Shown piece after piece: positions 15,020 through 59,188 of a DNA stretch of 64,000 nucleotides (positions are counted from its first letter, which is position 1; each line of letters starts with the position of its first letter). Source of the DNA: Candidatus Omnitrophota bacterium (GTDB lineage Bacteria; Omnitrophota; Gorgyraeia; JABMRG01; JAFGKX01); NCBI GenBank assembly GCA_043797125.1, contig JAZDPX010000033.1, forward strand, positions 34,527 to 98,526, given 5' to 3'. Both the position numbers and the translations under genes were made by a program. Under the pieces are notes generated by a model. The model did not search any database. It had not been told where the DNA came from and saw only the letters and a list, made by a program, of their open reading frames with translations.

Positions 15020-15047
15020 ATTTATCTCCTACATGTATATTAAGGCA

Positions 15048-16738: not shown

Positions 16739-16762
16739 ATCATCTGCTCCTTTTTTGGCGCA

Positions 16763-20270: not shown

Positions 20271-20272
20271 TT

Positions 20273-21493: not shown

Positions 21494-21511
21494 TTAAGCC
21501 CTCGCGTATTG

Positions 21512-25460: not shown

Positions 25461-25472
25461 GCGTACGCCCCT

Positions 25473-26099: not shown

Positions 26100-26116
26100 A
26101 ATACGGCCTGTTCACG

Positions 26117-27337
26117 CTACATAAGGACATAATCGCCCTCAAACTTGTCTTTTTCTGACGTAAGGATATAATGCTTATTTTCCTGTATCGGCAACCGGAC
26201 GTTTTCAACGCCGGGATCGTTTTTATGATTTTTGACATGGTCCTGCAAAACCCACTCGCCCCGGCTGTTTTTCTTCCATGCCAGGGGGTCGCGCATGTTT
26301 TCCACGCTATTTACAAATTCTTCCTCTGTAATCTCAAGATATCTTAAAATATTATCGAGATCTTTGGGCCTTTGCCCGTCGTATTTTTCCACCATGGCAA
26401 TGCCTTCCTCTCTGGTCATGCGCCTCTGTCTTATATCCAAAGAGGCGTGGTCGGTCGCTCTTCCGTAGCCGAATTTTAACCACCTTAAATAATCATGGGC
26501 GCCGCCGCAATGGTAACACTCAACATTCTCATATGTATTATAGGTGAGCGATTCGCATGCTGTAATAAATCCATATTTTTCAATCATCAACTCCGTCTGC
26601 TTTTTTGCATTCCAATTTAAAAAATTCCCTATATACAGGCCCCTTATATTTAATTCCTCCAACTCTTCCTCGGAAGGATAAATAGCCCACCTTAAATCGT
26701 CCGCCGTTATACCCTCCTTCTCATCTATTAAATCCTGGTAATCATACCCCCTCATCCCATGCTCTGTTCTGAATTTGCGTGTCATCTCAGCCATATCATG
26801 GTGGGAATACATTCCGCCCAGAAGCAAATGGCCTAGCTCTCCCCAAATCATAAGCGGCACCTTATACTTAACCGCCATTTGAACCGGAAAGGTATATACC
26901 CCGCAATGACAATGCCAGCAAAAATCTCCCATTTTTCTTAAGGCGACTCTCGCAAGCTTTTTAATTATCTTAGGGTTAGGAGTAAATCTTATGTGGTCTA
27001 CGCCGAATTTTTTAACCATATTTGTCAGGTTTTGCATGCCATGCCAAGTGTTAAATTGATGATTAAATGTAACCAAAAGAGGCCTTAAGCCATAGACTTC
27101 CTTAATAATATGTGTCTGAAAATGGCTATCTTTTCCGCCGCTGACTGGGATAATGCAGTCATATTCGCCCTTACCTTTATAAGACATTAATATATCCCGA
27201 AGCTGTTTTTCTTTCTCTTTCCAATTTATCTTATATCTTTCCTCGTCAACCCTGCAACCGCTGCAAACGCCCCTTTCGTCAAAAGTCAATTTTACCGCTG
27301 AACTTTCAGGGTACACACACCTTGTACAATACCTCAT
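26117..27337 (-). CDS. N-acetyl sugar amidotransferase (WbuX-like, PP-loop ATPase)
   Basis: SGGKDS PP-loop and N-terminal Cys4 zinc ribbon (CTRCVYPE...CSGC). The start is refined to ATG 27337 (MRYCTRCV). Confidence 0.7.
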   Translation of the reverse strand: MRYCTRCVYPESSAVKLTFDERGVCSGCRVDEERYKINWKEKEKQLRDILMSYKGKGEYDCIIPVSGGKDSHFQTHIIKEVYGLRPLLVTFNHQFNTWHGMQNLTNMVKKFGVDHIRFTPNPKIIKKLARVALRKMGDFCWHCHCGVYTFPVQMAVKYKVPLMIWGELGHLLLGGMYSHHDMAEMTRKFRTEHGMRGYDYQDLIDEKEGITADDLRWAIYPSEEELEELNIRGLYIGNFLNWNAKKQTELMIEKYGFITACESLTYNTYENVECYHCGGAHDYLRWLKFGYGRATDHASLDIRQRRMTREEGIAMVEKYDGQRPKDLDNILRYLEITEEEFVNSVENMRDPLAWKKNSRGEWVLQDHVKNHKNDPGVENVRLPIQENKHYILTSEKDKFEGDYVLM

Positions 27338-27351
27338 AAAACCCCCTCCTG

Positions 27352-29157
27352 TTATGCTTTGCTTATGGAGAATAATTTCTCGGCCCAAATGTCGGCCCAT
27401 TTTTCGTCCGCTTGCCCATATTTGTCAAGAAACGCGCGGCGGGCCTTTTGTATATCAGCGCCCTGCCACCACTGTCCGGCCTTATCATATATCTCGTTTA
27501 ACTTTAAGGCGGCGGACTTGGGGTCCTGATAAAGCACGCCCGCTTTTTCAAGCATATCAAAATACGCCTTTGCCTTATTCTTAATCCGCCAGGAATTAAA
27601 ATCTATGTAAGATATTAAAGGCACATTCATGGCCAATGCTTCGACAAAAGTCGTAACCGGATAATCTACGATTACAACTTTGGCTTTTCTGATCCAATCA
27701 ACGGCCTTTTTATCTTGCGCCCATTTTATAAAAGGAGCTCTGCTTGCGATAAATTCCTTTATGTTTCTTCCGAAATCTTCTTTAAGCGGCCTATAATAGA
27801 ATTTATCCGATAAAGCAGGCGATATGTTTTCTAAAAACAGGGCCTGGTTTTGGAAATAGGAATTTATTTCTTCCGGGCCGGGATTGCTGCCTATCCTGTG
27901 CGGATACCTTGAGAAGTTAGCGGCTATAAACACCGCGAGATCTTCTTCTTTGCCCTTCAGGCTCAAGGCCTTATCCTTTATTTTAGAAAGGTGCGGGCTT
28001 GGGGCTGGTATTATCTTGCAGGGATATTCCGTATCGTCCCAGCCCCAGCTGAAAAATAAATCTTTGTTACGCAACTCAAAAAGAGCCGTGGGCTGATAAA
28101 GACATGAGCCGTGGTCTCCTCCGTGCTGAACGCCGGCTAATTTGGCGCCTCTTTCTTTCATTTCGGCGGCGTAAATCTTAAAGACATCGTTTAGATACCA
28201 GCCGACGGCTGATATTATGATTTTGGGCACGGGCCTTTTAATGGCAATTGCGCGCTCGCGTATAGACGCGTACCCCTCAAGGCAGTATCTTGGCACGGAA
28301 TACGGCAAAAGTTTCTTCAATAAAACGATAAAAGGATCGTCAGCCCTGCTATTTTTAAGCCTTAGTTTTGAACGAAGTTTTTCGTCGTATGGGTATTGCT
28401 CGTCTCCCCAGAACGGAAAAAATGTATTCATGCTGATAACGGACTTAAGCCTTAGCTCCAGAGAAAAAAGATCCACCAGGCTCATATGATACATATCGAC
28501 CATCGCTATTTCACCATAACCGAAGAACAGTTTTCGCAGCTCCAGCGTAGCGCGTTTAACGTGAGTCTTAAACCTATCTACGGCTATGTGATTGCTTCTG
28601 CTGAGCCTTTTCGCCTTTTCTTTTTTAAAATCTATCCGCTCGTTATCTATGCCTTCGAATAATACTATTTGCGAGATCAGTTGAAGATTGAAATAGTCGT
28701 CCGTTATCTTGTTCGCCATAAAATCAAAGGTGCTTGTCGGAGCAAAAGAATCATCCAAGTCCACCACGTGGGTATAAATCGCGCCTGAGTGCTCGTTTAA
28801 CGTTTTTTGGACCCTTTTATACCTTTCGTGCGCGGCGTTTATGTAATATATAAGCCATGAATTTAATACAACCGACCAATAATCCGCGTTCTTATTAACC
28901 GCATGCACTTCATTTAAGGCTTCTGTAAGGCCGTTAAGTATAACGTCATAGGCGCTTTCGCAATATTTTGCGTTTTCCAGCAAATTAACCGTGGAGTAAT
29001 TTATATCAGAAGGCGGTATTATCCTTTTGCCAGGGCCGTGTTTGTAACCGTTATTAACGCACCATGGCGCCAAAAGAACAATATCCGCAGACTTATCCCA
29101 TATCTCGCTTAAAGCTGTTGTTGCCAAATATTTTCTGGCAGCAGTCACGGTTTTCAT
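27352..29157 (-). CDS. Hypothetical 601-aa protein, possible sugar transferase
   Basis: No recognised motif. Large soluble proteins of this kind commonly flank WbuX-type amidotransferases in O-antigen loci. The C-terminal part resembles a GT-B-like Rossmann domain. Confidence 0.3.
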   Translation of the reverse strand: MKTVTAARKYLATTALSEIWDKSADIVLLAPWCVNNGYKHGPGKRIIPPSDINYSTVNLLENAKYCESAYDVILNGLTEALNEVHAVNKNADYWSVVLNSWLIYYINAAHERYKRVQKTLNEHSGAIYTHVVDLDDSFAPTSTFDFMANKITDDYFNLQLISQIVLFEGIDNERIDFKKEKAKRLSRSNHIAVDRFKTHVKRATLELRKLFFGYGEIAMVDMYHMSLVDLFSLELRLKSVISMNTFFPFWGDEQYPYDEKLRSKLRLKNSRADDPFIVLLKKLLPYSVPRYCLEGYASIRERAIAIKRPVPKIIISAVGWYLNDVFKIYAAEMKERGAKLAGVQHGGDHGSCLYQPTALFELRNKDLFFSWGWDDTEYPCKIIPAPSPHLSKIKDKALSLKGKEEDLAVFIAANFSRYPHRIGSNPGPEEINSYFQNQALFLENISPALSDKFYYRPLKEDFGRNIKEFIASRAPFIKWAQDKKAVDWIRKAKVVIVDYPVTTFVEALAMNVPLISYIDFNSWRIKNKAKAYFDMLEKAGVLYQDPKSAALKLNEIYDKAGQWWQGADIQKARRAFLDKYGQADEKWADIWAEKLFSISKA

Positions 29158-29161
29158 AGCT

Positions 29162-31204
29162 TTACAGGTAACTCGTTTCGTAAAGAAGGTCTCTTTTATT
29201 CATATATTCAACCATTTTTCTTAGGGTCTGATTCATATCAGGGCACTTAAATTGCTCATAGAGCGTGCGCAGTGTCTTTGCCTGATCCGGCGGAAGCGTA
29301 AATTTTAACTTAACGCCATGATTCCTGTACTCGGATAACTGCTTATTATAACCGTCGTGTTTCCATTTTAGAACATCGTGCTTAAACTCCAGGACATTAT
29401 CCGCGTTTAAATTTTCTAAACCTCGGGAAAAATCTATAAAAATATTTTCGCTGAACCTTCGTAAATCCTCAAACTCGCCTGATTCCACGAAAACCGCCGC
29501 TGTTTTGTGTTTGGCCAACATTGCGCCGGCGGTCTTAAACAGATAATCGCCGAAATCCTTCTTGGCTTCGAATAGAAATCTGTACGTGTACCTATAATTT
29601 AATTTGCCAAAGCCGCCCAGGGCAATGGCTTTAAAGTTTTGCGGCTTTGAATAATACTCAAAGAGTTTTTGTTTTGTATCAAACCACTCATTATACATCT
29701 CTTCAATAAAATCCTTAAATATATTACGCACGGAAACAGGCGCTGTATCCTTTTTATCGATAAGAGCAATAATAAAATCAACAGGGTTTATGCCGTTGCA
29801 TTTAAGAAAGTGGGGCAGCTCCAGATAATATTTGTAGCTCCAAAGAAATTGTATTAAAAAATGTATCGGCCTAAAATATAGAATATCCTCTTCTGTCATG
29901 GTGCTTGTATGAAGCACCATCTCTTCCTGTTCAATGGAAACAATATCCGCATATTTACCAAAACCTCCGTCTATCAGCCTGTGCTTTGTCTTAATGTCAA
30001 ATCTTTCTCTCTCTTCCGGAGTATCCAGCTCGCTTCCGCTCAGCATTCTTAGGTTGTAGCACGAAATGCCGGCAGCGCCATAATCAAAAAGCTCCCTTAA
30101 GCCTGCCAGATGCGATTCTTTTGTCTCGCCGGGCAGCCCCAATATCAGCTCAGAATATGTGCAAATACCCTTTTTATTGAAATGGCCCTGAATTTTTTTA
30201 AACGCGTCGATATTTATATTTTGCCTTTTTATATTCTTTGCAACCAGCGGATCCATTGTCTGGAATGAGCTGGTTACGCTTATCATGTCGCTTAAGGTTT
30301 CTGCTATTTTTATCATCCTGTTTGGCGTTGCCTTTGCTCCGCTAGCTGAAATGTGCCGCGGGTATCCATATTTATCTCTGATTACCCTTAAAAATTCGGC
30401 AATCTCGATATCCCTGTTAAGTATGCCGAAATTTGCGTCAGCCACATAAAGGATATCTGTCTTTTTTATCTTTTTTGTAATATATTCAATTTCCTGCTTC
30501 ACCCTTTCAAGCCCGAATGGGAAAATCCTGTTTTGGCTTGCCTTTCCCCACGCGCAATATGTGCATGAATAAGGACAGCCTCTGTTGGTTTCAATTAAAG
30601 GGATTAGGTTGAATTTGAAGAATTCATCCAATATGCCGCTAAGATAAGGGGACGGTATTTGGTCTAAATTTTCTATATATTCGTATTTCTTTGACGCAAC
30701 CACCTCATTGGCGCTTTTGTCATAAAATGAACAATTTTTCACAAAAGCCTTCTTCATCTGTGCTATGCCAGAGGACTCAAAATACCTTTTCAGTAAATTT
30801 ACAAAACCGTTTTCGCCCTGGTCAATTACGCAGAAGTCAAGGCACGGCCTTTCTTCAAAATACCTGAGGCGGTCCTGGCAATCAACAGGATAGTCAGGCC
30901 CTCCGTAAACAGTCAGTATATCCTGCGATATGGATTTAACATGGGAAATAATTCTATTATTAATATCGAGATTCCATGTATAATTACCTAAACCCACTAT
31001 GTGGGGCTTTTTTTTCTCTATGGCTTCGATCAAATCCTTTGGGAATTTAAATAATCTAACTTCTATTTTATCGCCATAAAACTTTTTAGCGTACGAAGCT
31101 ACATATCCTATATTAATAGGGAAGGTATGCGGGCCTTTAGCAGCATAGTTGTGCACCAAGTCCGCAAGGTAAATTATGCATTTTTTTCCTATAACCTTAT
31201 TCAT
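29162..31204 (-). CDS. B12-binding (class B) radical SAM enzyme
   Basis: N-terminal cobalamin-binding-like Rossmann domain followed by RGCPYSCTYCAWG (Cx3Cx2C); 680 aa. Confidence 0.75.
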   Translation of the reverse strand: MNKVIGKKCIIYLADLVHNYAAKGPHTFPINIGYVASYAKKFYGDKIEVRLFKFPKDLIEAIEKKKPHIVGLGNYTWNLDINNRIISHVKSISQDILTVYGGPDYPVDCQDRLRYFEERPCLDFCVIDQGENGFVNLLKRYFESSGIAQMKKAFVKNCSFYDKSANEVVASKKYEYIENLDQIPSPYLSGILDEFFKFNLIPLIETNRGCPYSCTYCAWGKASQNRIFPFGLERVKQEIEYITKKIKKTDILYVADANFGILNRDIEIAEFLRVIRDKYGYPRHISASGAKATPNRMIKIAETLSDMISVTSSFQTMDPLVAKNIKRQNINIDAFKKIQGHFNKKGICTYSELILGLPGETKESHLAGLRELFDYGAAGISCYNLRMLSGSELDTPEERERFDIKTKHRLIDGGFGKYADIVSIEQEEMVLHTSTMTEEDILYFRPIHFLIQFLWSYKYYLELPHFLKCNGINPVDFIIALIDKKDTAPVSVRNIFKDFIEEMYNEWFDTKQKLFEYYSKPQNFKAIALGGFGKLNYRYTYRFLFEAKKDFGDYLFKTAGAMLAKHKTAAVFVESGEFEDLRRFSENIFIDFSRGLENLNADNVLEFKHDVLKWKHDGYNKQLSEYRNHGVKLKFTLPPDQAKTLRTLYEQFKCPDMNQTLRKMVEYMNKRDLLYETSYL

Positions 31205-31207
31205 ACA

Positions 31208-31903
31208 CTATCTTTTTAACAAAGCTTCTGCAAGTTTGAAATCCGTCATATCGTCTATCTCTATTGATCTTTCCTTAGGCATAATATAAGCGTAAGTTTG
31301 CCTGCCATAGTAACTTTTGTGCTTTTTGATATAATCTGCAAAGCCTAAAAATATAGCGCCGTTTAGTTGGAAAAATTTCGGCAAATACTGCGAATTTTTA
31401 CCTCTTACGCTTCTGGGAAGAAAATCTTTCAGGCATCCATCGGGAGGCAAAATATTCATCCACATGGGGTGGTGAAAAGCCTCGCAAATGGATATTATTG
31501 CCTTTGCCTTTTTTTTGAACAAAAATTCAACAGCATCGTCTATGTCTTTGCTCGTCCTAAAGGGACACGGAGGCTGCAATATAACCGCAATATCAAAACA
31601 TATGCCTTTTTTTTCGTAAAACTTCAGGGCGTGAACAACAACATCAAAAAGTGGCACCTCATCACCGGAAAGGTCCCGCGGTCTCATAAACGGGACTTCC
31701 GCATTATACCCGCGGGCGACTTTAGCAATCTTCGGGCTATCAGTGCTTACTATTATTTTGTCCAAATATTTGCTCTTTTTTGCCTGCTCTATGGTCCGAC
31801 CGATCAGGGGCTTACCCAATAAAGGCTTTATATTTTTATAAGGCAGCCTTTTGCTGCCGCCTCTTGCGGGAATCACGGCTAATATGCTTTTGCTCTTATA
31901 CAT
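31208..31903 (-). CDS. CMP-nonulosonic/ulosonic acid synthetase family (NeuA/PseF/KdsB-like cytidylyltransferase)
   Basis: ILAVIPARGGSKRLPYKNIKPLLGKPLIGRTIE...IVSTDS is the NeuA family signature. Confidence 0.7.
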   Translation of the reverse strand: MYKSKSILAVIPARGGSKRLPYKNIKPLLGKPLIGRTIEQAKKSKYLDKIIVSTDSPKIAKVARGYNAEVPFMRPRDLSGDEVPLFDVVVHALKFYEKKGICFDIAVILQPPCPFRTSKDIDDAVEFLFKKKAKAIISICEAFHHPMWMNILPPDGCLKDFLPRSVRGKNSQYLPKFFQLNGAIFLGFADYIKKHKSYYGRQTYAYIMPKERSIEIDDMTDFKLAEALLKR

Positions 31904-31918
31904 AACTTTTACCCCGGT

Positions 31919-33202
31919 TTATTTTTTCCACGCCGGCATATGAGACTTAGGCTGATATTTTTTAATCAGCATGGTCCTTTCTCTTAATAAATCTTCGGCT
32001 GACAAGGCCTTGGTCCTCACCCTTGCTTCGGCCAGCCCTTGGCCGTGAGTATGCGCTCCCAGGCCCTCTCCTAGGAATTGTAAATCAATATCCTTATTCT
32101 GATCCATGGCTTTCCTTATCGCGGTCCCCTTATAAGGATAATAGATCGCGAGCTGGAAATCATCCAGGCCAAAAATATCAATTGATTTTCGGATGAATTC
32201 CTCGGTTTCGGAAATTGTTTTATGGTCCTCGCCGGGCAGGCCCAACATCATGTACGCCTTTACTCCTATACCGTAATTTTTCGCTATTCTGATAAAATCG
32301 TAGTTTTGCTGAACGGAAGTCTTTTTGTTTATAGCGTCAAGTATTTTCTGGCTTCCTGATTCGGCGCCGAAAGCCATTTCGCAGCAACCTGCGTCTTTGA
32401 GGGCCGCGGCTAGCTTATCGTTCATAAATTTTGCGTGGGCGTTGCATCTAAACAGCAGCCCGCTTTCTTTGATAACATCCAGATAGGGTTTTATCATCGC
32501 CAGATTTATCGCAAACATATCGTCGGGAATATAAAAGGCCTCATACCCAAGCGTCTTTATGTCAGCCAATTCCCTAGCAGCCAAATCCACGCTATGCCAC
32601 CTTGTCGTAGACCTTGCGCTCGCGCAGAAGTTGCACGCCAACGGGCAACCCCTGCCGACAATCAATATGGTGGATTTTAATCCGGGCCTAAGCTCGTAGC
32701 GATGCCTTGCCAAAAAGTCTTTTCTTCCGATTCTGTCCGGCTTCGGGATAAGTTCCAGCTCTTTTCTCATCAGGATATCGTCTAAAATCCTGTCTTTAGC
32801 CTCGCCTTTTAGTATCTTCACTATGTCTCTTTCGCCGTCGCCTTTAACCATGTAATCCCAGGTCTCTTTAGCCACGTCATCGGTATAATAAGTGACGTGG
32901 GGGCCTCCGGCTATCATAACCTTTTTGGGCCACACGGACTTTACGCTGTTTAAAATGGCGGTGGCCTCTTTTCTCTGCGGGGTCATTATAGAAACACCGA
33001 TGGCATCAAAGCCCTCGAATCGCCTTAGCCCGGCATCCGTTAAATCGTAATCGTCGTCGATTTCAACCTTCACGTGCGGCAAATCCCTTTTTACTGCTGC
33101 GTCCAGATATAAAACCCCCATAGGCGCGTGGACTCTGGGGTCATCCAAATACGGGCTTTTGCAGGTTAACAGCAATATGCTTTTTAGCGGCTTGGCATTC
33201 AT
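31919..33202 (-). CDS. B12-binding (class B) radical SAM enzyme
   Basis: VGRGCPLACNFCAS cluster after an N-terminal B12-binding-like domain; 427 aa. Confidence 0.75.
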   Translation of the reverse strand: MNAKPLKSILLLTCKSPYLDDPRVHAPMGVLYLDAAVKRDLPHVKVEIDDDYDLTDAGLRRFEGFDAIGVSIMTPQRKEATAILNSVKSVWPKKVMIAGGPHVTYYTDDVAKETWDYMVKGDGERDIVKILKGEAKDRILDDILMRKELELIPKPDRIGRKDFLARHRYELRPGLKSTILIVGRGCPLACNFCASARSTTRWHSVDLAARELADIKTLGYEAFYIPDDMFAINLAMIKPYLDVIKESGLLFRCNAHAKFMNDKLAAALKDAGCCEMAFGAESGSQKILDAINKKTSVQQNYDFIRIAKNYGIGVKAYMMLGLPGEDHKTISETEEFIRKSIDIFGLDDFQLAIYYPYKGTAIRKAMDQNKDIDLQFLGEGLGAHTHGQGLAEARVRTKALSAEDLLRERTMLIKKYQPKSHMPAWKK

Positions 33203-33218
33203 TATATGATTTCCTTTT

Positions 33219-34319
33219 TTAAGAAATCTTATCCCAGGTTATCCCTTCTTCTTCTTTTATATCAACATTTGCTTTTCTTCCGATAAGCATATCAAAAAAT
33301 TTCGGATACAGTCCGTCTCCGGATCTTTTACAGGTAATCATATCTTTTTTAAGAACGGTTCCTTTTAAGATGTTTCGGCTGGCAACGACCTTTCTCCTGC
33401 CATATAAATAAGCCCCTTTTTCTTCGGGCAGCAAAGTCCTGATATACGAACCCAGACAAACTTCCGCTTCTCTTATATTTTTTACCATCTGCTTTAGGTC
33501 TTGCGCATCAACAGATATGGCGTGGTCTGAGGTGCCGGTTAATGTTTTGTCCACTGTATAATGTTTCTCTATTAATTTGGCTCCCAAAGAAGCCGCTATA
33601 GCCGGAATATTAATTCCGAGCGTGTGGTCCGAAAATCCTATCGGATAATCCGGAAATAATTTCTGCAGGCTTCGGATAAAATTCAAATTAGCTATTTTTG
33701 CGCTAGCCGGATAGGCGACTATACAATGCAAAGGAATAAGCCGGTCGTTTCCGGATGATTTCATCGCCTCTATCGCTTCTTCTATCTCCCCGATACTGCA
33801 CATGCCTGCCGAAAAGGCAACGGGCCTGCCTTTCTTGGCCACATATTTTAAAAAAGGTATGTTTGTCAGGTCTGTTGCAGCCAGTTTATACAAAGGGATA
33901 TCGAGTTCCTCCAAAAAATCCGCATTTTCATAATCAAACGGCGTGGAAAAGAATATTATTCCCTTTTTCCTGCAATAGCCGGCTATCTGCCTAAACTCAT
34001 CCTTGGTCAATGATTTTTCCTGCTTGTATTTCTTTAACTGTGAAGTCCCGCCTTTTTTATCAACCCAAAAAAATGGCACTGTCTTTGTTACGAGCTTCTT
34101 TGGGTCATAATGCTGAAATTTGATGGCATCTGCTCTTGCCTTGAGTGCGCCGTCAACCAATTTCTTAGCAAGCTCCAAACTGCCCTCGTGGTTGCAGCCT
34201 GCTTCAGCTACGATAAAAGCAGGGCAACCTTCTCCTATAAATTTATCCGCTACTTTAATTTTTTTCATTTCTAATCTCCAATACGGCATCAATAATTCTG
34301 TCAACGCCTTCACCGTCAA
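33219..34319 (-). CDS. N-acetylneuraminate synthase family (NeuB/PseI/LegI-like) with C-terminal SAF domain
   Basis: FIVAEAGCNHEGSLELAKKLVDGALKARADAIKFQ TIM-barrel signature. The likely true start is M18 (about 34268). Confidence 0.8.
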   Translation of the reverse strand: MTVKALTELLMPYWRLEMKKIKVADKFIGEGCPAFIVAEAGCNHEGSLELAKKLVDGALKARADAIKFQHYDPKKLVTKTVPFFWVDKKGGTSQLKKYKQEKSLTKDEFRQIAGYCRKKGIIFFSTPFDYENADFLEELDIPLYKLAATDLTNIPFLKYVAKKGRPVAFSAGMCSIGEIEEAIEAMKSSGNDRLIPLHCIVAYPASAKIANLNFIRSLQKLFPDYPIGFSDHTLGINIPAIAASLGAKLIEKHYTVDKTLTGTSDHAISVDAQDLKQMVKNIREAEVCLGSYIRTLLPEEKGAYLYGRRKVVASRNILKGTVLKKDMITCKRSGDGLYPKFFDMLIGRKANVDIKEEEGITWDKIS

Positions 34320-35259
34320 CTGTTTTCTGCCCCTTCCTGCTCATTCTCTCTCTCAAAGATTTGTTCAAAATAATATTTTTTATATCTGAGGCTAGTTTTT
34401 CTTCATCGTTAGAAAAATAACCATAAGTGATTACGCTTTTCCACTTTTGAAATTCTTTTAGCCTGCCATATTCTAATTCATTCTGGGCAAAGACCACTCC
34501 GGGCGTGCCTGTGGCTGCCAGCTCGCATATTGTGCGGCCGCCGGAGACAAATGCCAAATCGGAATCCAGCATCAAACTCAGCATGTCGGCGACTTTTCTA
34601 TTTATAATAAATCTCTTTGGGTTTGTCATCCGCCGCAGAAGTTTGTCTATTTTTCTCTCGCTGCCAAAACCCGGGCCTATAACAACATTAACGCGAGAGG
34701 CAAGGCCTAATTTATCCAACACCTTCATCAGTTTTAATGTTAAATTATTAACATCAGAACCGCCGAAAGATACAAGTAAATTTTTTGCGATGTTTTTAAT
34801 CTTCTTTTTCCTTAAATTCTTAAATTTAGAATCAAGGATGGCGTGTCTTGGCCCATACAGGCATTTGACATCCTTAGAATGGTATAATAAATTAATCACA
34901 ATATCTGCTTTCAGGCGGCCTTTGAAATCAGACTTATGCGATACATCTATAACCGCTGCCTTAAATTTGCCCAGCCCGTCAACAAAGTCTTCTTTTAAGT
35001 TTAATAAATCCCGCACCACGATATCCGGCTTGAATTTTTTAATAGTATTTAAAAAATATTTTGTGTCCGTTATATTGACTCTTTCAATATTATATCCGTT
35101 TAAAAGAAACCCTTCTGCGCCGCTGTCGGAATCGTGCGATATCAAAAACTTTATTTTTGGGTTAAATTTTTCTCTAAACCTTTTAGCGAGAATTACGCAA
35201 TCATACAAAGCGCCCATCCCGATATTCTTATTGCCTTCCGTAATAAACAATACCTTCAT
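34255..35259 (-). CDS. PseG/SpsG-family UDP-sugar hydrolase (GT-B-like)
   Basis: The refined N-terminus MKVLFITEGNKNIGMGALYDCVILAKRF parallels the PseG N-terminal consensus. The ORF-track start is 35331. The start is refined to ATG 35259. Confidence 0.55.
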   Translation of the reverse strand: MKVLFITEGNKNIGMGALYDCVILAKRFREKFNPKIKFLISHDSDSGAEGFLLNGYNIERVNITDTKYFLNTIKKFKPDIVVRDLLNLKEDFVDGLGKFKAAVIDVSHKSDFKGRLKADIVINLLYHSKDVKCLYGPRHAILDSKFKNLRKKKIKNIAKNLLVSFGGSDVNNLTLKLMKVLDKLGLASRVNVVIGPGFGSERKIDKLLRRMTNPKRFIINRKVADMLSLMLDSDLAFVSGGRTICELAATGTPGVVFAQNELEYGRLKEFQKWKSVITYGYFSNDEEKLASDIKNIILNKSLRERMSRKGQKTVDGEGVDRIIDAVLEIRNEKN

Positions 35260-35275
35260 GTTTTTCTCGGTAAAA

Positions 35276-35515
35276 TTACTTCTCTGTGCCGTCATGAAGC
35301 CAATATCTGCCTTTATTGTAAACCTTGCCAACCTTATCCTCCAACTCCGGAGAAAGCAGCCTTAAAAGCTCCTTGCCTAAAATTCGATACTGCTTGCCAA
35401 CCTTTGCGGTTCTTATAATTCCGTTCTTTATAAGACGCATTGTTGTGCTTGAACTGACCTTTAGCAGCTGCTGCGCTTCATGGGTTGTGTACACCTCGTT
35501 TGCTTTAATCTCCAC
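35276..35515 (-). CDS. Xis/MerR-type helix-turn-helix DNA-binding protein (HTH_17-like), 79 aa
   Basis: YTTHEAQQLLKVSSSTTMRLIKNGIIRTAKVGKQYRILGKELLRLL fits the excisionase-family HTH pattern. The start lies 1 nt after the upstream stop. Confidence 0.55.
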   Translation of the reverse strand: MEIKANEVYTTHEAQQLLKVSSSTTMRLIKNGIIRTAKVGKQYRILGKELLRLLSPELEDKVGKVYNKGRYWLHDGTEK

Positions 35516-35516
35516 A

Positions 35517-36884
35517 TTAATCTCCTTTTTTGTTTAATAACGCCTCTACTGCCTTTAACAGGCGTTGTGAATACCGCGCGTCGTCATTGTATACGACATG
35601 CTTTATATCATCCTTAATTTTCCTTTCTGCCTTCGGGTCATTCGTAAACTCCACAAGTTTTCTGCAATCGTCAATAAAACTGCCTCTGTCGCTACTGACT
35701 ATAAAATGCATCTTTTTAATATAATTAAACTGTTCCCAGTTGCATCGCCTGCCCATAGAAGAAAAGCTGTCAGAGATATCATCATCAAAACCTATGCCTA
35801 AGCTGGGCTTGCCGTAGATGAACAATTCTACAATAATGGTTGATAACGGCGTAATCATGCAATCAATGCCGTTATATAGGCTGACATAATCCGTCATTTT
35901 CGGCATTACTGTCTTTGGCGTAAGGTTTATGTTCTTCTCTTTGGCATGCATGTACGCCTCTTTAACCGACTCGTCAAATGTCACATTCTTAAACCCAACA
36001 TCGAAAAAGGATTTCTCCTGCGGCCTTTTTTCTCTCCACGGATGCGGCCTGTAAAAAATATGCACGCCGGTTAATCGTTTATCTTCTATCGCGTCGTCCA
36101 AATTTTTGAGTAGGGCTGTCTCATTAAACCTTCTTAGCGAACCGCCAAAAAGTATCACCTTTTTATCAAACGGTAAATTATTTTTCTCTCTGAATTCGGC
36201 TCTAAGGCTTTGAAGCTTGGTCCCATGCAATGAATCAAACAGGCACTGGTATTGAGGCGCACCCAAGACAGCGATACGGCTATTCTTCATTCCTAACATT
36301 TTTCTTGCGTAATATGCGTTCTGTTCTCCCCATACACCCATGTAATCCGGTTTTATGTACAGCAAAAGCTTCGTTGTAACATGATCCCAGCCTGAAGGAA
36401 TTGCCAGGCTTTTTATCTTCAGAATCTTGGCAATTTTTACAAAATCCAGCTCTGCCTTATCTGCCCTTGTGGTGGGCACTATTATCAGCTTAGGTTTTAC
36501 GGCTTCTATCTTCTTACACAACGCAATATCAGGTTTAACTATAAATTCCACCAGGGCTCTTAAAACCTCAAAAATAGGAGGCCATGAAAGTACTATCTTG
36601 ATAATTCTCGCTAATGTCCACGTCGTATTATGAAGCAGGCGGTAGCTGCTGGAATGCCTGGAGACCCTGATTATAAAAGCAGCTCTTACTAAAACCCGAA
36701 GCCTGGCATCTTTATAGGAAAAATCATGGGGTATAACGTTCTTTTTGTTTATCGGGACGCTGACTCTGTTTTTGTCAATAAGATAATACACATTATATTT
36801 TTTCTCAAGCTCATCCAACGCGCCGCTTTTAATAAAATCTCTTATTATTAAATTGCTTACAACATAAAATACAATATTTTCCAT
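35517..36884 (-). CDS. Hypothetical 455-aa soluble protein, possible nonulosonic-acid transferase / GT-B-like
   Basis: No diagnostic motif. Its position between NeuB-module genes suggests a transferase. Confidence 0.3.
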   Translation of the reverse strand: MENIVFYVVSNLIIRDFIKSGALDELEKKYNVYYLIDKNRVSVPINKKNVIPHDFSYKDARLRVLVRAAFIIRVSRHSSSYRLLHNTTWTLARIIKIVLSWPPIFEVLRALVEFIVKPDIALCKKIEAVKPKLIIVPTTRADKAELDFVKIAKILKIKSLAIPSGWDHVTTKLLLYIKPDYMGVWGEQNAYYARKMLGMKNSRIAVLGAPQYQCLFDSLHGTKLQSLRAEFREKNNLPFDKKVILFGGSLRRFNETALLKNLDDAIEDKRLTGVHIFYRPHPWREKRPQEKSFFDVGFKNVTFDESVKEAYMHAKEKNINLTPKTVMPKMTDYVSLYNGIDCMITPLSTIIVELFIYGKPSLGIGFDDDISDSFSSMGRRCNWEQFNYIKKMHFIVSSDRGSFIDDCRKLVEFTNDPKAERKIKDDIKHVVYNDDARYSQRLLKAVEALLNKKGD

Positions 36885-36902
36885 AATATAGCTGTCGCCT
36901 TT

Positions 36903-38297
36903 TTAGTGCCTGACGCCCCTGAAGGTTGCGTCTTTTTCATAATAAAGTTTTCTGTGCGCCTCAATGTGTTTCTTCGCAACATGTTGGAAATGGTCTTTGA
37001 CCAAAATCTGATTAGACTCATATAATATATCGTAGAGTTCGCCCTCTTGTAATTGCGTAAAGTTGCACGCGAACAAATCGGAATTCAGGTGCTTATTTTC
37101 ATAAAAATCCTCACAGTCCTTAATAAGCCCCTTTTTAAGCGCCAGATAATACAAGGGTGAGCCGGGATAGGGCGTAACCGGTTTTAACGTGCGCAGCTCG
37201 CCATAGGTATTGTATTTTCTTAAAAATTCCACGGTCTTTGCCGCAGTCTCCCTGTTATCCCCTACATTTCCAAAAATTACATTAAGCCCGGGGTTAATAC
37301 CGCTTTTTATTGTCGCCTCTATGCCGGTTATAATCTCGTCTGTAGTCTGCATCTTGTTCATTTTATCCAAAACATCCTGGTCTAAAGATTCAATACCATA
37401 ATTTATGTACACGCATCCGGCCCTTTTTAATAATTTTAACAGGTCTAGACGCGCGACGCTTAAGCGTCCGTCAATGTCAAAATGTATGTTGAGCTTTTCT
37501 TTGATAATGCGTTCGGCAAATTCCGAGGCGCGGCGCACAGACGACATTAATAACTCATCGCGAAAACAAATGGCGTTAATGTGGTAATCCTTGATCAGCC
37601 TCTTGCACTCTTCCATCACATTATCTAAAGACCGCATGCGGTAGCCCGGCTCCATGCGGTAACAAAATGCGCACTTATGCGTGCACCCGCGGCTGGTGAT
37701 TACCGGCATTGACCTCTGGCTTCTTCCTACGGGGATGCGTATTTTAGCGACATAGTTTTCTATTGGGAATCTATCCCACGCGGGAAAAGGCACAGAATCC
37801 AAATCCTGAATCGGCTTCTGTCTTTCGGTAGTAACTATCTTGCCTGCAAATGAATATGCTAGCCCCGGGATATCTTGGCAGCTTTTATTATCAGAAAGCT
37901 TCCTGATAAGCGCAAGGAAACTCCTCTCTCCTTCTCCTAATACAATATAGTCTGCCTCAAATTTTTTAATAAAGAATTCCGGTTCCGGGGTAAACATGTA
38001 TCCGCCCAGTATTATCTTTGGCCTTTTTTTAAGCCTGTTTACAGCAGCCATCATGCGTTTGAACTGTTCATACTGCCAGTAACCCGCTATCATGCCTATG
38101 CAGACAGCGTCAAAATCATTAACCTTAAGATACTCAAAAAGCTCTTCATCGCTATGATGATACACATCCATATTTAAAAGGTGTATGTCCGCGTCATTGA
38201 ATCCGTCCTGCCTAAGCACGGAAATGAGATAACCGATGCCTAAAGGAAAATCGTTCAGCGAAGCGTCGTTATCGTAAATAAGAAATACGAGTTTCAT
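36903..38297 (-). CDS. B12-binding (class B) radical SAM enzyme
   Basis: TSRGCTHKCAFCYR cluster after an N-terminal B12-binding-like domain; 464 aa. Confidence 0.75.
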   Translation of the reverse strand: MKLVFLIYDNDASLNDFPLGIGYLISVLRQDGFNDADIHLLNMDVYHHSDEELFEYLKVNDFDAVCIGMIAGYWQYEQFKRMMAAVNRLKKRPKIILGGYMFTPEPEFFIKKFEADYIVLGEGERSFLALIRKLSDNKSCQDIPGLAYSFAGKIVTTERQKPIQDLDSVPFPAWDRFPIENYVAKIRIPVGRSQRSMPVITSRGCTHKCAFCYRMEPGYRMRSLDNVMEECKRLIKDYHINAICFRDELLMSSVRRASEFAERIIKEKLNIHFDIDGRLSVARLDLLKLLKRAGCVYINYGIESLDQDVLDKMNKMQTTDEIITGIEATIKSGINPGLNVIFGNVGDNRETAAKTVEFLRKYNTYGELRTLKPVTPYPGSPLYYLALKKGLIKDCEDFYENKHLNSDLFACNFTQLQEGELYDILYESNQILVKDHFQHVAKKHIEAHRKLYYEKDATFRGVRH

Positions 38298-40233
38298 TAT
38301 TTATGTTTACCTTTTCTAAAATACGCCTTGCAAGCGAGGAATGGTCAAGGGAGTGAAACTCAAGGGCCTCGGCAGGGCTCCCGCACGCCGGGTATCCTTC
38401 GATTGCGAATTTTTCAAATATCTTTATATTCAAATCTTTCAACTTGATAATGGCGTTTAGCAGTTTATCCCCGAGCGCGCCGTAGCCGCTGTGATTATCC
38501 AGCACAAAAACCGCATCATGTTTATTAATAATTTTTTTAAGCCAGCTTTCACTTACAAGGTTAATCCACGGCATGTTCACAACTTCAAGCGAAAAACCTT
38601 TTTTGCGCAGAAGTCCGGCCGCCAATAATGCCTCATGCAGCATAACAGGGCCGTAGGCAAAAATTACAGCGTCGTTTCCCGCCTCTAAGATGCATCCCTC
38701 TCCGGGAACAAGGCTGTAGTTTTCGGGTAAAATAATTTTGCCCGGAGAAGGCGATATCGCCAGCCTGATCATACATGTCTTATCGGTCTTGCTAGCGCAC
38801 CAGTTAAGCGCAAGCCCGGTCTCAAGCGCATTGCAGGGTTCCATTATTACACAATTTGGCAAAGCGCCGAACAGCGAGATGTCTCGCAGGCTTTGATGCG
38901 ACTTGCCCGGGCCCGCCGGGATTAATCCCGCATAGTGGCATACATATATTATTTTTGTCCCTTCGGTCGCGTTTGTATAAATCTGTTCATTTGCCCTTGA
39001 AGACAAAAACACGCCGAAAGAATTTACAATAGGCAAAAACCCGGCAAGCGCCAATCCGCCGGCCATTGAGACCATGTCCTGCTCGGCAATGCCATTTTCA
39101 ATAAATCTCTCGGGAAATTTTAATTCAAATTCGCGCAAGCCGCAATCTTGGGCTAAATCCGCGTCTAAAACAACGATATCCTGCCTTGAGTTTCCTAAAT
39201 CAACCAGGGCCTCGCTATAAGCATTTACCACTTTTTCAGCCGAGTCTTTGAACCTTTTTTTATTTTTCTGGTTTTCCTGCGCAACTTCAAGCGCTGCTTC
39301 GCCCAAAGCGTATTTAGTAAATGCGCTGTCTATCCTGTTGATAATTTCATTAAAGGCAAGTTCGTAGCTATCATCATCCGGAGCGCCTGAATGCCATTTA
39401 TACACGCCGTTTCCGTTTTTTAGAGCGGCAGGCCCTTCCATAAACGAAACCCCCTTGCCCTTAACTGTATCAGCTATTATGATTTTTGGTTTTTTCTTTA
39501 CGCTGCCTAGTTTTGCCAACGCTTCATTCATCTTCACAAAATCGTGCCCGTCACAGGCTTGAACATGCCAACCAAATGCCCTGAATTTTTCCTCCAGGTT
39601 AGACAGGCTGATTATCTGCTGCGTTAATTTGTCTGTTTGTATCTTATTAAAATCCACGATAACAGTAACGTTGGTTATGCCTTGGTGAGCTGTAGTCTGC
39701 AGAGACTCCCATATCTGGCCTTCCTGCAGTTCGCCGTCTCCGGTTAAGACAAAGACCCTGCCTTTATTCTTGTTTAATTTTTTAGCGAATGCCATGCCTT
39801 TTGCCTTTGAGATTCCCATCCCAAGGGAGCCGGCATTGGCCTCTATGCCCGGAATTTTTACATCCGGATGCCCGTCTAATCCGCCAAGGCGCCTGAGGTT
39901 GAGCAGTTTGTCATAATCAATTATCCCTGCCGCAAAAAATACGCAATAAAGACCCGGGCAATCATGGCCTTTAGAGGAAAAGAAAATATCCCTGTCCGGA
40001 TTATTCAGGCCGGAGCTTAAAGTATTCATATGGCAAAAATACAGCATAATAAATATATCCATCGAGCTAAAGCTTGAGCCAAGATGCCCTGAACCTGCTT
40101 TTTTAACGCAGCTCAACGCGTTAAGCCTGCACATATCGCTTAGGATTTTGAGCTTTTCAAATTTCTCTATGCCGGAATTGCGTACGCGCTCAAATTCTTT
40201 ATATGGTATGAATTTTATTTTTATAGTGGCCAT
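38269..40233 (-). CDS. Transketolase, single-chain (N- plus C-terminal halves fused)
   Basis: GSGHLGSSFSSMDIF and GDGELQEG ThDP motifs, plus C-terminal pyrimidine-binding and TKC domains; 654 aa. Confidence 0.8.
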   Translation of the reverse strand: MATIKIKFIPYKEFERVRNSGIEKFEKLKILSDMCRLNALSCVKKAGSGHLGSSFSSMDIFIMLYFCHMNTLSSGLNNPDRDIFFSSKGHDCPGLYCVFFAAGIIDYDKLLNLRRLGGLDGHPDVKIPGIEANAGSLGMGISKAKGMAFAKKLNKNKGRVFVLTGDGELQEGQIWESLQTTAHQGITNVTVIVDFNKIQTDKLTQQIISLSNLEEKFRAFGWHVQACDGHDFVKMNEALAKLGSVKKKPKIIIADTVKGKGVSFMEGPAALKNGNGVYKWHSGAPDDDSYELAFNEIINRIDSAFTKYALGEAALEVAQENQKNKKRFKDSAEKVVNAYSEALVDLGNSRQDIVVLDADLAQDCGLREFELKFPERFIENGIAEQDMVSMAGGLALAGFLPIVNSFGVFLSSRANEQIYTNATEGTKIIYVCHYAGLIPAGPGKSHQSLRDISLFGALPNCVIMEPCNALETGLALNWCASKTDKTCMIRLAISPSPGKIILPENYSLVPGEGCILEAGNDAVIFAYGPVMLHEALLAAGLLRKKGFSLEVVNMPWINLVSESWLKKIINKHDAVFVLDNHSGYGALGDKLLNAIIKLKDLNIKIFEKFAIEGYPACGSPAEALEFHSLDHSSLARRILEKVNINNETRISYLR

Positions 40234-40978
40234 ATGGTTTATAGTTAACGACTGGCAGAACCGCCTTCTTATGCTTAATCATGTGCTCTGCCATGTGCCA
40301 ATCTTCTTCATAATCAAGTGAAAAGCCTTCCGCGCCCTCCGTAAAAAACGGGGTTATTATCTTCCCCTCGCGGGAATTGTACAAACGCACTACTTTAGTC
40401 CAGGCGATCTCCAGGGAGCTGTTTTGCACATAAACCTTTGGCAGCGCCTGATATTGCCCTGCATGCCATGCGACCTTAAGGTGAGACTGATCGAGAAGCG
40501 GCTTCATAAATTTCCCCTTTACAACCCACATCTTCCCAGGGTGCTGGTGGCATAATTCAACCGCGCGCAATGAATGCGCATTTTTTATGCCTATAAACTG
40601 CTGCCATGCGCGCCGGATAGTGGCTGCGCTGCGAAACGGGCTGCTTGAGCGAAGGATGCTGAAACAATCGTAACCGCAGCCTGCCTTTGATAAGGCGTGC
40701 CTTAGCCATTCAATGTCAGGCGAGACAGAAGTTGCAAACTTCTTCGGCCTTAAGAAAGGCGCTTCGGCCCCGTAATATAACGCCACCTGGCGTATTTCCT
40801 CGGAATCCGTGGAAACTATAATTTTGTCAAAAATACCGCTTGCAGAAGCTGCTGCTATCGTGTATGCGATTAAAGGGTGGCCTGCCAGCGGTTTTATGTT
40901 TTTGCGCAAAATACGAATTGAGCCGGAACGCGCAGGGATTAAAGCCAATACTTTATATTTTTTTTGCCTGGATTTCAT
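40199..40978 (-). CDS. CMP-nonulosonic/ulosonic acid synthetase family cytidylyltransferase (second paralog)
   Basis: VLALIPARSGSIRILRKNIKPLAGHPLIAYTI...IVSTDS. Confidence 0.75.
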   Translation of the reverse strand: MKSRQKKYKVLALIPARSGSIRILRKNIKPLAGHPLIAYTIAAASASGIFDKIIVSTDSEEIRQVALYYGAEAPFLRPKKFATSVSPDIEWLRHALSKAGCGYDCFSILRSSSPFRSAATIRRAWQQFIGIKNAHSLRAVELCHQHPGKMWVVKGKFMKPLLDQSHLKVAWHAGQYQALPKVYVQNSSLEIAWTKVVRLYNSREGKIITPFFTEGAEGFSLDYEEDWHMAEHMIKHKKAVLPVVNYKPYGHYKNKIHTI

Positions 40979-43038: not shown

Positions 43039-43041
43039 GTT

Positions 43042-44532: not shown

Positions 44533-44552
44533 ATAAACCTCTCCTGCCGCAA

Positions 44553-54485: not shown

Positions 54486-54492
54486 GAAATAT

Positions 54493-56760: not shown

Positions 56761-56928
56761 CTGGATTCTACTTCATAAATGGTCAAGCAGGGCCCCATAA
56801 GCTTGCGCGCAAATAGCTCGTCTGTCGTGACGGGCAAAGCCGTTGTGTCCGTGCTGTCGTAACGAAATCTGATTCCTCCGTCGTAATAGGGGCTAAATTC
56901 CTTAACAATTACCGCATGGTTTTTCAAC

Positions 56929-59187: not shown

Positions 59188-59188
59188 G

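Follow-up and report, generated by a model that had tools for sequence, protein, structure and literature searches.

The 64-kb window analysed here, the whole stretch of 64,000 nucleotides from a Candidatus Omnitrophota metagenome-assembled genome, is from end to end a single minus-strand surface-glycan biosynthesis locus, in which three radical S-adenosylmethionine (SAM) genes, named rSAM-A, rSAM-B and rSAM-C, lie between positions 29162 and 38297 among genes for nonulosonic acid (NulO) biosynthesis. Besides two NulO modules and a phosphonate module, the window encodes a Wzx flippase, sugar-nucleotide enzymes, glycosyltransferases and membrane transferases of the ArnT/PMT and YfhO types (Table 1). 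In order of transcription, module 1 consists of NeuB1, a KdsC/KDN-9-P-phosphatase-like HAD protein, a short-chain dehydrogenase/reductase (SDR), an aldehyde dehydrogenase, an enolase-superfamily dehydratase, an ApbA-type reductase, CTP1, a transketolase, rSAM-C and a Glyphos_transf-like protein; module 2 consists of a PseG-like protein, NeuB2, rSAM-B, CTP2, rSAM-A, a LIC12162-family transferase, WbuX, HisH, HisF and Wzx. Genes between 29162 and 38297 overlap or are spaced by 3-18 nt, the single exception being a 185-nt gap at 35332-35516, and when 28900-38600 was scanned for promoters and terminators, their numbers did not rise above chance and nothing pointed to an internal transcription unit at this gap. 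An earlier note on this DNA had described three class-B radical SAM open reading frames of 680, 427 and 464 aa, interleaved with a NeuB synthase, a PseG-like hydrolase and a cytidylyltransferase. The sizes proved exact, and the neighbours matched the corresponding profiles (NeuB 257.8 bits; PseG 107.8 and PseF 163.9 bits, both below cutoff); NeuB1, CTP1, the transketolase and the Glyphos_transf-like gene, which lie in or beside the same interval, had gone unnamed. The three radical SAM genes are split over two separate NulO modules rather than belonging to one, because the module 2 block recurs without module 1 in another locus (L008) and the arrangement NeuB1-type, CTP, rSAM-C recurs alone. 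A single NulO carrying three modifications, as the earlier note had proposed, is therefore not the natural reading. Judged from its sequence, the locus most likely makes two different cytidine monophosphate (CMP)-NulOs, of which one would be the substrate of rSAM-C and the second would be modified by rSAM-B together with rSAM-A.

All three proteins passed the Pfam checks for the B12-binding domain PF02310 (rSAM-A 39.2, rSAM-B 37.8 and rSAM-C 58.2 bits; gathering cutoff 32.1) and for Radical_SAM PF04055 (40.9, 69.0 and 75.5 bits, respectively; gathering cutoff 29.5). Each contains a CX3CX2C motif (Table 1), the cysteines of which are invariant in all three family alignments of 19-22 homologues each. 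A Rossmann-type cobalamin domain was recognised at the N terminus of every one of them, by PF02310 and additionally by superposition of AlphaFold2 models for rSAM-B and rSAM-C and by alignment with TokK for rSAM-A. Such a domain is to be read with the caveat that AprD4 has a related one yet binds no cobalamin, and that both AprD4 and ArsL, neither of which binds the cofactor, cluster with the B12 radical SAM enzymes in their sequence network (2026 review). The P-methylases could be set aside, as the PhpK model gave 48-102 bits against a cutoff of 600 and the Sden_1168 model 34-107 bits against 575. It might also be supposed that the three are housekeeping tetrapyrrole or cofactor enzymes of the BchE, HemN or HpnJ-like kind, placed by chance in a glycan locus, since many homologues are labelled "anaerobic Mg-protoporphyrin IX monomethyl ester cyclase" by the Joint Genome Institute and BchE is the top NCBIfam match of rSAM-C. 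However, the BchE model gave only 39.0, 71.7 and 120.3 bits for rSAM-A, rSAM-B and rSAM-C against a cutoff of 481, HemN-type matches were weaker still, the radical SAM genes are translationally coupled to NulO genes, and different phyla share the glycan setting. A BchE/HemN housekeeping role was rejected because of these NCBIfam scores and the glycan context of most related loci of at least 12 kb, and we regard it as extremely improbable. The earlier note had held that BchE-type homology with no conserved glycan context would overturn its proposal; the proteins fall far outside BchE and the context was found to be strongly conserved.

Only rSAM-A can be assigned, from its sequence, to a methylase clade, that of TokK and CysS. 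In phmmer searches of the PDB it matched TokK with E=5.6e-52 (residues 65-510 against 64-508) and CysS with E=5e-50. Its W77, invariant in 22/22 family members, aligns with TokK W76 and CysS W75, and its W219, two residues after the third cluster cysteine, aligns with TokK W215 (CysS W206). In TokK, Trp76 lies 3.8 Å under the cobalt and Trp215 is next to cobalamin and substrate; the CysS counterparts are Trp75 and Trp206, and the pair is common to TokK, ThnK and CysS and absent from Fom3, GenK, PhpK and TsrM (TokK paper). The likeness to TokK/ThnK and CysS/KedN5 extends to length (680 versus 681 aa), to what appears to be the same three-domain layout and to the CPYSC..C cluster context. The length is consistent with the large C-terminal helical substrate-binding domain of TokK-type enzymes (about 640-680 aa in total), although identity is low and the TokK alignment ends at residue 510, with the last 170 residues outside it. 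The KedN5 subfamily is the nearest curated family, of which rSAM-A is not a member. A further difference is that TokK and CysS sit in antibiotic clusters with pantetheinylated substrates, whereas rSAM-A sits in a nucleotide-sugar pathway. Because of the TokK/CysS homology and the conserved signature tryptophans, rSAM-A is predicted with moderate confidence to be a methylcobalamin-dependent C-methylase, possibly an iterative one. Functional precedents for class-B methylation of sugar sp3 carbons or of a CMP-activated substrate are offered by GenK/GenD1/Fms7 and Fom3: GenK methylates C6' of an aminoglycoside, and Fom3 C-methylates cytidylylated 2-hydroxyethylphosphonate. Compared here by description, these enzymes differ from rSAM-A in pathway and substrate class and lack the tryptophan pair (TokK paper).

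The chemistry of rSAM-B and rSAM-C is more ambiguous. Their AlphaFold2 models (pLDDT 90.0 and 88.6, respectively; pTM 0.88) superpose in both domains on TsrM, OxsB, CysS, TokK and MgmA, a C-methylase of glutamine, at 13-19% identity. In Foldseek searches rSAM-B returned AprD4 first (TM 0.76/0.72), followed by MgmA, MiaB, TsrM and CysS, and rSAM-C returned TsrM, AprD4, OxsB, CysS, MgmA and TokK; these fold searches did not separate a methylase from a dehydratase, and NCBIfam gave generic class-B matches only. AprD4 is likewise the best PDB sequence match of both proteins (E=1.7e-12 for rSAM-B and 2e-11 for rSAM-C). Either or both could thus be non-methylating radical enzymes of the AprD4, OxsB or BchE kind, possibly independent of cobalamin, with rSAM-A as the sole methylase; examples would be a 1,2-diol dehydratase that forms deoxy-keto intermediates from the glycerol-like C7-C9 side chain or from a nucleotide-sugar diol, or a radical epimerase or oxidase. 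AprD4, at about 450 aa, is comparable in length and has an aminosugar diol as its substrate, an SDR that might serve as an AprD3-like reductase partner adjoins the rSAM-B homologues in loci L009 and L010, cobalamin-free enzymes do occur inside the B12 radical SAM network (2026 review), and module 2 has neither a 4,6-dehydratase nor an aminotransferase, a gap that a non-canonical deoxygenation would fill. Nonetheless, the sequence likeness to AprD4, at 17-19% identity, spans only the radical SAM core (residues 176-365 and 158-400); NF033070, the AprD4 model of NCBIfam, gave 57.2 bits for rSAM-B and 58.6 for rSAM-C against a cutoff of 500, so that neither belongs to that family; and rSAM-B has no flanking SDR either in the window or in L008. 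The N-terminal domains, moreover, pass PF02310, rSAM-C clearly so, and hidden Markov models of cobalamin enzymes (BchE, PhpK, BzaD and the ladderane model) align over the N-terminal halves of both proteins, from about residue 17. These two features favour cobalamin use by rSAM-B and rSAM-C, and a non-methylating role for them is judged somewhat unlikely.

The families of these enzymes were examined in other genomes by a pattern scan, which returned 561 relatives of rSAM-A from metagenome contigs and 427 relatives of rSAM-C from species-representative genomes, 80 of each being kept. Gene context was scored by tblastn with queries from the window and reference queries in the kept loci of at least 12 kb (57 for the rSAM-C family and 38 for the rSAM-A family), with NeuB and PepM counted within 10 kb. 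In the rSAM-C family NeuB was found in 79% of loci (45/57), CTP_transf_3 in 75%, a LegB-like SDR in 68%, DegT in 67%, a hydrolysing-epimerase-like protein (Epimerase_2) in 65%, PtmE-like in 63%, PglD-like in 46%, Maf in 30% and flagellin in 25%. The rSAM-A family gave DegT in 74%, NeuB in 71% (27/38), a LegB-like SDR in 58%, Epimerase_2 in 55%, CTP_transf_3 in 53%, an iron-containing alcohol dehydrogenase (Fe-ADH) in 39% and PtmE in 37%. By rough reasoning, NeuB would be expected by chance within 10 kb of an arbitrary gene in well below 1% of cases. The rSAM-C homologue lies no more than 400 bp from a CMP-synthetase gene in 17/57 loci and from PtmE in 10/57, and the pattern NeuB1-type, CTP, rSAM-C is repeated in L005, L016, L041, L071 and L090. 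Since rSAM-C homologues accompany both legionaminic-type and NeuB1-type gene sets, rSAM-C would be expected to act late, at the level of the CMP-sugar, on a feature common to both sugars.

Module 2 is best matched in L008, where PseG-like (68% identity), NeuB2 (78%), rSAM-B (79%), CTP2 (75%), rSAM-A (76%) and WbuX (86%) are followed by HisH, HisF and LIC12162. As the part from PseG-like to rSAM-A recurs at 68-79% identity and each of the three radical SAM families is NulO-associated elsewhere, the arrangement is not due to chance. In both L008 and L009 the rSAM-B homologue lies between NeuB (or an SDR) and CTP_transf_3; L010, which also has one, belongs to a glycan context too, but NeuB is absent from the surrounding 10 kb. 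Homologues of rSAM-A with 43-54% identity occur in NeuB/CTP_transf_3/DegT clusters of a Nitrospirota bacterium (L002), of a TARA archaeon (L003) and of a Nanoarchaeota metagenome-assembled genome (L004), the two archaeal loci also containing NeuB2 homologues (52% in L003 and 45% in L004). In L004 (8475-11907) a 138-aa B12-binding open reading frame is followed by a 956-aa protein in which the radical SAM and C-terminal part is fused to CBS and to a PseB-type (Polysacc_synt_2) dehydratase; a second B12 radical SAM protein, of 527 aa, comes after this fusion. The association of rSAM-A with NulO genes is strong but not absolute, because the archaeal locus L001 (rSAM-A homologue with 57% identity) has a non-glycan context.

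Loci with several such enzymes are frequent: between one and three further B12 radical SAM genes were found in 19/57 rSAM-C loci and 16/38 rSAM-A loci, and a Scalindua locus (L007) has three, together with three or four NeuB paralogues. Orthologue-grade pairs of rSAM-A and rSAM-B are present in L008, L091, L131 and L150 and of rSAM-A and rSAM-C in L047, L130, L140 and L170; orthologues of all three were found together in no other sampled locus. Among other arrangements, the rSAM-A homologue of L106 (10001-14007) is duplicated in tandem, both copies sharing 44% identity with the query, and in each of L137-L139 three B12 radical SAM genes lie within about 8 kb: an rSAM-A orthologue and two divergent genes, one rSAM-B-like and one rSAM-C-like. 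The Scalindua NulO cluster also contains a gene of the MbnB/TglH/ChrH family of DUF692-type iron enzymes (L007, 14805-15593). The hosts belong to Bacillota, Pseudomonadota, Nitrospirota, Nitrospinota, Planctomycetota, Elusimicrobiota, Omnitrophota, Chloroflexota, Bacteroidota-related lineages, the candidate phyla radiation and DPANN archaea, and those of rSAM-C homologues include the cultured Desulfoscipio geothermicus, Wukongibacter baidiensis, Magnetospirillum sulfuroxidans, Geomonas silvestris and Desulfosporosinus sp. Tol-M. Class-B radical SAM genes in NulO clusters are, on these counts, a widespread and undescribed theme and not a one-off. The earlier note had suggested an unprecedented, multiply C-methylated NulO. 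No paper on the association was found; NulO clusters with multiple B12 radical SAM genes are common in environmental genomes.

The same survey bears on the suggestion in the earlier note that the three enzymes act instead on a CMP-phosphonate. By this account they would serve the neighbouring phosphonate module in the manner of Fom3, and their NulO neighbours would be incidental. A PEP mutase-nucleotidyltransferase fusion and a phosphonopyruvate decarboxylase do lie 9-11 kb downstream in the window, and four loci of the rSAM-A family (L003, L131, L134 and L145) combine PepM, B12 radical SAM and NulO genes. Across the loci scored, however, PepM was found in 1/57 (2%) for rSAM-C and 4/38 (11%) for rSAM-A, far below the counts for NeuB. 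The NeuB2, rSAM-B, CTP2, rSAM-A block is kept in L008, of which 18.8 kb were recovered and proved free of PepM, the tryptophan signature of rSAM-A is absent from Fom3 and PhpK (TokK paper), the PhpK scores are as low as given above, and the phosphonate module has a SPASM-type radical SAM gene of its own. The Fom3-like role was rejected on the co-occurrence statistics, and we consider it very unlikely. Other genes of the phosphonate module encode an EamA transporter, a methyltransferase, a second NTP_transf_3 protein and two members of the CDP-alcohol phosphatidyltransferase family; no 2-aminoethylphosphonate transaminase or Fe-ADH was seen within it. In the archaeal locus L003, homologues of the decarboxylase (Ppd), NTP3, PepM and the SPASM radical SAM protein adjoin the NulO genes.

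Table 1. Features of the window, with positions counted from its first nucleotide
Feature	Positions	Strand	Assignment and evidence
rSAM-A, 680 aa	29162-31204	minus	Class-B radical SAM, apparently of three domains; predicted TokK/CysS-like methylcobalamin-dependent C-methylase
rSAM-A motif CPYSCTYC	30554-30577		CX3CX2C
rSAM-A W77	30974-30976		Aligned with TokK W76
rSAM-A W219	30548-30550		Aligned with TokK W215
rSAM-B, 427 aa	31919-33202	minus	Class-B-fold radical SAM; candidate methylase or AprD4-like radical dehydratase
rSAM-B motif CPLACNFC	32624-32647		CX3CX2C
rSAM-C, 464 aa	36903-38297	minus	Class-B-fold radical SAM; large length-uniform family with legionaminic-type and NeuB1-type NulO clusters
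rSAM-C motif CTHKCAFC	37662-37685		CX3CX2C
NeuB1 (module 1)	45886-46923	minus	Pfam NeuB 267.4 bits; PDB SpsE, NeuB, PseI
KdsC/KDN-9-P-phosphatase-like HAD (module 1)	45377-45889	minus	NCBIfam KdsC-phosphatase 114.7 bits, above cutoff 106.95; KDN-9-P phosphatase model 100.7
SDR, aldehyde dehydrogenase, dehydratase and reductase genes (module 1)	40953-45374
CTP1, CMP-nonulosonate synthetase (module 1)	40199-40978	minus	Pfam CTP_transf_3 68.7 bits; NCBIfam PseF 122.1, below cutoff
Fused transketolase (module 1)	38269-40233	minus	N, pyrimidine-binding and C domains (Pfam); NCBIfam 416.7 bits, cutoff 488
Glyphos_transf-like, 455 aa (module 1)	35517-36884	minus	Pfam 22.8 bits; NCBIfam BFO_1060 glycosyltransferase 29.5, cutoff 200 (weak)
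PseG-like nucleotide-sugar hydrolase, GT28_C fold (module 2)	34255-35331	minus	NCBIfam PseG below cutoff (see text); weak Pfam GT28_C
NeuB2, NulO synthase, PEP + aldose (module 2)	33219-34319	minus	Pfam NeuB 257.8 bits and SAF; NCBIfam NeuB_NnaB 321.8 and PseI (see text), both below cutoff; PDB SpsE 1e-63, PseI 1e-53
CTP2, CMP-nonulosonate synthetase, PseF-like (module 2)	31208-31903	minus	Pfam CTP_transf_3 85.2 bits; NCBIfam PseF below cutoff (see text)
Downstream part of module 2	24648-29157	minus	LIC12162-family transferase, WbuX, HisH-like, HisF-like
LIC12162-family transferase	27352-29157	minus	NCBIfam 356.9 bits, cutoff 225
WbuX	26117-27400	minus	NCBIfam 383 bits, cutoff 203
HisH-like amidotransferase	25473-26099	minus	Pfam GATase / His_biosynth
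HisF-like amidotransferase	24648-25460	minus	Pfam GATase / His_biosynth
Phosphonate module	14333-23147		Downstream of the NulO modules
SPASM-type radical SAM	20273-21493		Directly upstream of the PEP mutase fusion
PEP mutase fusion	18645-20303		C-terminal NTP_transf_3 nucleotidyltransferase
Phosphonopyruvate decarboxylase	17503-18675		Above NCBIfam cutoff
PMT_2/ArnT-like glycosyltransferases and YfhO-family protein	52803-61542 and 12762-14498		Four PMT_2/ArnT-like and one YfhO-family membrane protein
814-aa protein	47867-50311		Sub-threshold spermine/spermidine synthase match

Module 1 starts with a synthase/phosphatase pair, NeuB1 and the HAD protein, and the Glyphos_transf-like protein that closes it is a candidate NulO transferase. 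The transketolase sits between CTP1 and rSAM-C, and a homologue also adjoins the rSAM-C homologue of a Nitrospinota locus (L047); as a thiamine diphosphate-dependent, C2-transferring enzyme it could be an alternative means of extending or branching the sugar chain. Between the HAD gene and CTP1 lie the SDR, the aldehyde dehydrogenase (best NCBIfam match alpha-ketoglutaric semialdehyde dehydrogenase), a galactonate-dehydratase-like member of the enolase-superfamily sugar-acid dehydratases and an ApbA/PanE-type 2-keto-acid reductase. This set looks like a small sugar-acid or hydroxy-acid pathway, possibly feeding an unusual acyl substituent, and it was not found in the 160 related loci scanned (0/57 and 0/38 among those of at least 12 kb). 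Upstream of NeuB1, the 814-aa protein lies between an MBOAT/unknown pair and a class I methyltransferase.

Within module 2, the PseG-like protein gave no PDB match by phmmer and is conserved in L008, L009 (51%), L003 (33%) and L004 (28%). WbuX, HisH and HisF form a PseA-like set that converts N-acetyl to acetimidoyl groups; together with LIC12162 they follow rSAM-A in L008 and accompany rSAM-A homologues in L002, L101, L108 and L111. This machinery is encoded in the window despite the absence of a DegT-type aminotransferase, PtmE, flagellin and Maf. In L008 (1-5425) and L009 (1-5257) the NeuB2/rSAM-B module is immediately preceded by the triplet PMT, YfhO, PMT, which is also found among the membrane transferases of the window; this suggests a conserved lipid-linked transfer system coupled to that module.

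NeuB-family synthases, CMP-synthetases, the PseG-like hydrolase and the PseA-like set are shared with the canonical pathways for pseudaminic acid (Pse; PseB/C/H/G/I/F), legionaminic acid (Leg; LegB/C/H/G/I/F and PtmE) and N-acetylneuraminic acid (Neu5Ac; NeuC/B/A), and rSAM-C homologues lie elsewhere inside complete legionaminic-type clusters, flagellin/Maf glycosylation islands among them. The NeuB, PseG-like and cytidylyltransferase proteins of the window nevertheless all scored below the NCBIfam equivalog cutoffs for Neu5Ac and Pse enzymes, and the canonical Pse pathway was not recovered (PseG 107.8 against 153.55 bits, PseI 262.8 against 340.25, PseF 163.9 against 205.7). Among PDB entries, NeuB1 and NeuB2 resemble SpsE, PseI and NeuB about equally. 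A tblastn search of the 64-kb window found no DegT/PseC/LegC-type aminotransferase, PtmE, Fe-ADH, flagellin or Maf, and no PglD-type, PtmE or DegT gene adjoins either module. For both NulO pathways, then, the genes for the early steps lie in another part of the contig, or these steps are non-canonical. To our knowledge, no described NulO pathway includes a B12 radical SAM step.

A literature search returned no paper in which nonulosonic acids or the glycosylation of flagellin were linked to radical SAM or cobalamin enzymes; a 2026 catalogue of B12 radical SAM enzymes lists no NulO substrate, and no radical SAM gene was linked to neuB in a Geobacter paper. Possible products have, however, been reported. 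Kleikamp et al. (2020; PMC8157484) described potential 10-carbon ulosonic acids in Magnetospirillum gryphiswaldense and, less abundantly, in Methanococcus. In the SugarBase preprint of April 2026 (bioRxiv 10.64898/2026.04.20.719630), CMP-activated alpha-keto acids of m/z 679.1983, 693.2139 and 707.2296, spaced by CH2, were found in M. gryphiswaldense, with a marker fragment after 1,2-diamino-4,5-methylenedioxybenzene (DMB) labelling of 311.10 instead of 297.09 and with four carbon losses instead of three in MS3. Its authors concluded that the backbone is elongated; the preprint proposes no biosynthetic gene and mentions neither radical SAM nor cobalamin nor C-methylation. If such enzymes C-methylate NulOs, products that differ by CH2 and appear to have a C10 backbone would be expected. 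In M. sulfuroxidans J10 (L044), legionaminic-type genes are followed by a carbamoyltransferase, a TylF-type O-methyltransferase, an rSAM-C homologue (47% identity), a 614-aa protein and a TokK-like 680-aa B12 radical SAM protein, which is 28% identical to rSAM-A (E=1e-77) and keeps the YTW motif. The carbamoyltransferase of NodU/CmcH type and the TylF-like enzyme (7503-9964 of L044) hint at O-carbamoylated and O-methylated NulOs in Magnetospirillum.

The methylases might extend a substituent of the NulO rather than its backbone, so that an O-methyl, N-acetyl or acetimidoyl group would become an ethyl, isopropyl or propionyl-type group. The closest characterised relatives of rSAM-A are CysS, which turns methoxy into ethoxy, isopropoxy and butoxy groups, and the KedN5 subfamily; class I O-methyltransferases lie directly upstream of the homologues in L002 and L044; and WbuX/HisH/HisF adjoin rSAM-A in the window and in L008 and accompany the families in about one-quarter of loci. 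On the other hand, no methyltransferase flanks rSAM-A in the window, and the MS3 data from Magnetospirillum, whose ulosonic acids are only presumed to be products of such enzymes, place the extra carbon in the backbone and not in a labile O- or N-substituent. Extension of a substituent is accordingly considered unlikely.

On balance, we lean towards rSAM-A, rSAM-B and rSAM-C being class-B tailoring enzymes of two CMP-NulO pathways, whose reaction is radical C-methylation (alkylation) of the CMP-NulOs. Of the C-methylases envisaged in the earlier note, rSAM-A is retained within the TokK/CysS clade, whereas rSAM-B and rSAM-C are structurally as near to the cobalamin-free AprD4. Several points weigh against the C-methylation reading. 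The chemistry of all three families is predicted from sequence, fold and gene context, and the substrate and target carbon are presumed. In rSAM-A, the nearest curated family model (NF033712, KedN5 subfamily) gave 218.7 bits against a cutoff of 700 and was matched only at profile positions 34-397 of 624, the W219 position is W in 14/22 family members and Q in 8/22, and the substrate-contact position, R280 in TokK and W271 in CysS, varies within the family (S286 in rSAM-A), as might be expected of enzymes with a different substrate. AprD4 matches rSAM-B and rSAM-C as well as or better than the methylases do (TM 0.72-0.76). The window is without an aminotransferase and the canonical early Pse and Leg genes, and the sub-cutoff scores, the about equal likeness of the NeuB proteins to SpsE, PseI and NeuB, and the lack of DegT, PtmE and Fe-ADH assign neither NulO to a particular sugar. 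As for the C10 sugars, Kleikamp et al. suggested synthase promiscuity as their origin (PMC8157484), and the homologues were seen in M. sulfuroxidans, whereas the chemotype comes from another species, M. gryphiswaldense; a cluster look-up of the M. sulfuroxidans proteins returned M. sulfuroxidans only.

Under radical C-methylation, module 2 would produce an acetimidoylated NulO, with rSAM-A acting on the sugar or its CMP ester in a TokK/CysS-like manner. SAM would methylate cob(I)alamin to methylcobalamin, and a second SAM would be cleaved at the [4Fe-4S] cluster to a 5'-deoxyadenosyl radical, which would take a hydrogen from an unactivated sp3 carbon of the (CMP-)NulO; the resulting substrate radical would then capture the methyl group of methylcobalamin. 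Repeated cycles of rSAM-A could yield an ethyl or isopropyl group or a chain that reads as C10-C11. rSAM-B might methylate a second position or carry out an AprD4-like diol dehydration. Module 1 would supply the second NulO, to be tailored by rSAM-C, most likely at the CMP-sugar stage, through methylation as for rSAM-A or another radical transformation. The products would pass to the LIC12162-family and Glyphos_transf-like transferases and be exported via Wzx.

Nonulosonic acids cap bacterial flagella, capsules, lipopolysaccharides and S-layers and govern phage and immune recognition. The pathways known to us modify them at N- and O-substituents only, by polar chemistry. It is put forward tentatively, as a possibility that we hold with less confidence than C-methylation itself, that the rSAM families are the missing route to C10-C11 ulosonic acids, that is, to CMP-Leg-, Pse- or Kdn-type sugars C-methylated once or repeatedly, a new sugar class on the flagella, S-layers and polysaccharides of very diverse anaerobic and uncultivated bacteria and DPANN archaea, this locus making two differently alkylated NulOs. 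If true, carbon-carbon bond formation through a radical cobalamin step would be added to NulO chemistry, and candidate genes would be provided for the orphan C10 CMP-ulosonic acids of Magnetospirillum reported in 2020 and 2026. The cultured hosts of rSAM-C homologues and the existing assay by DMB labelling and CMP-sugar mass spectrometry make the idea testable. It would also give access to a large and so far uncharacterised section of the class-B radical SAM enzymes, spanning hundreds of loci in well over ten bacterial phyla and in archaea.

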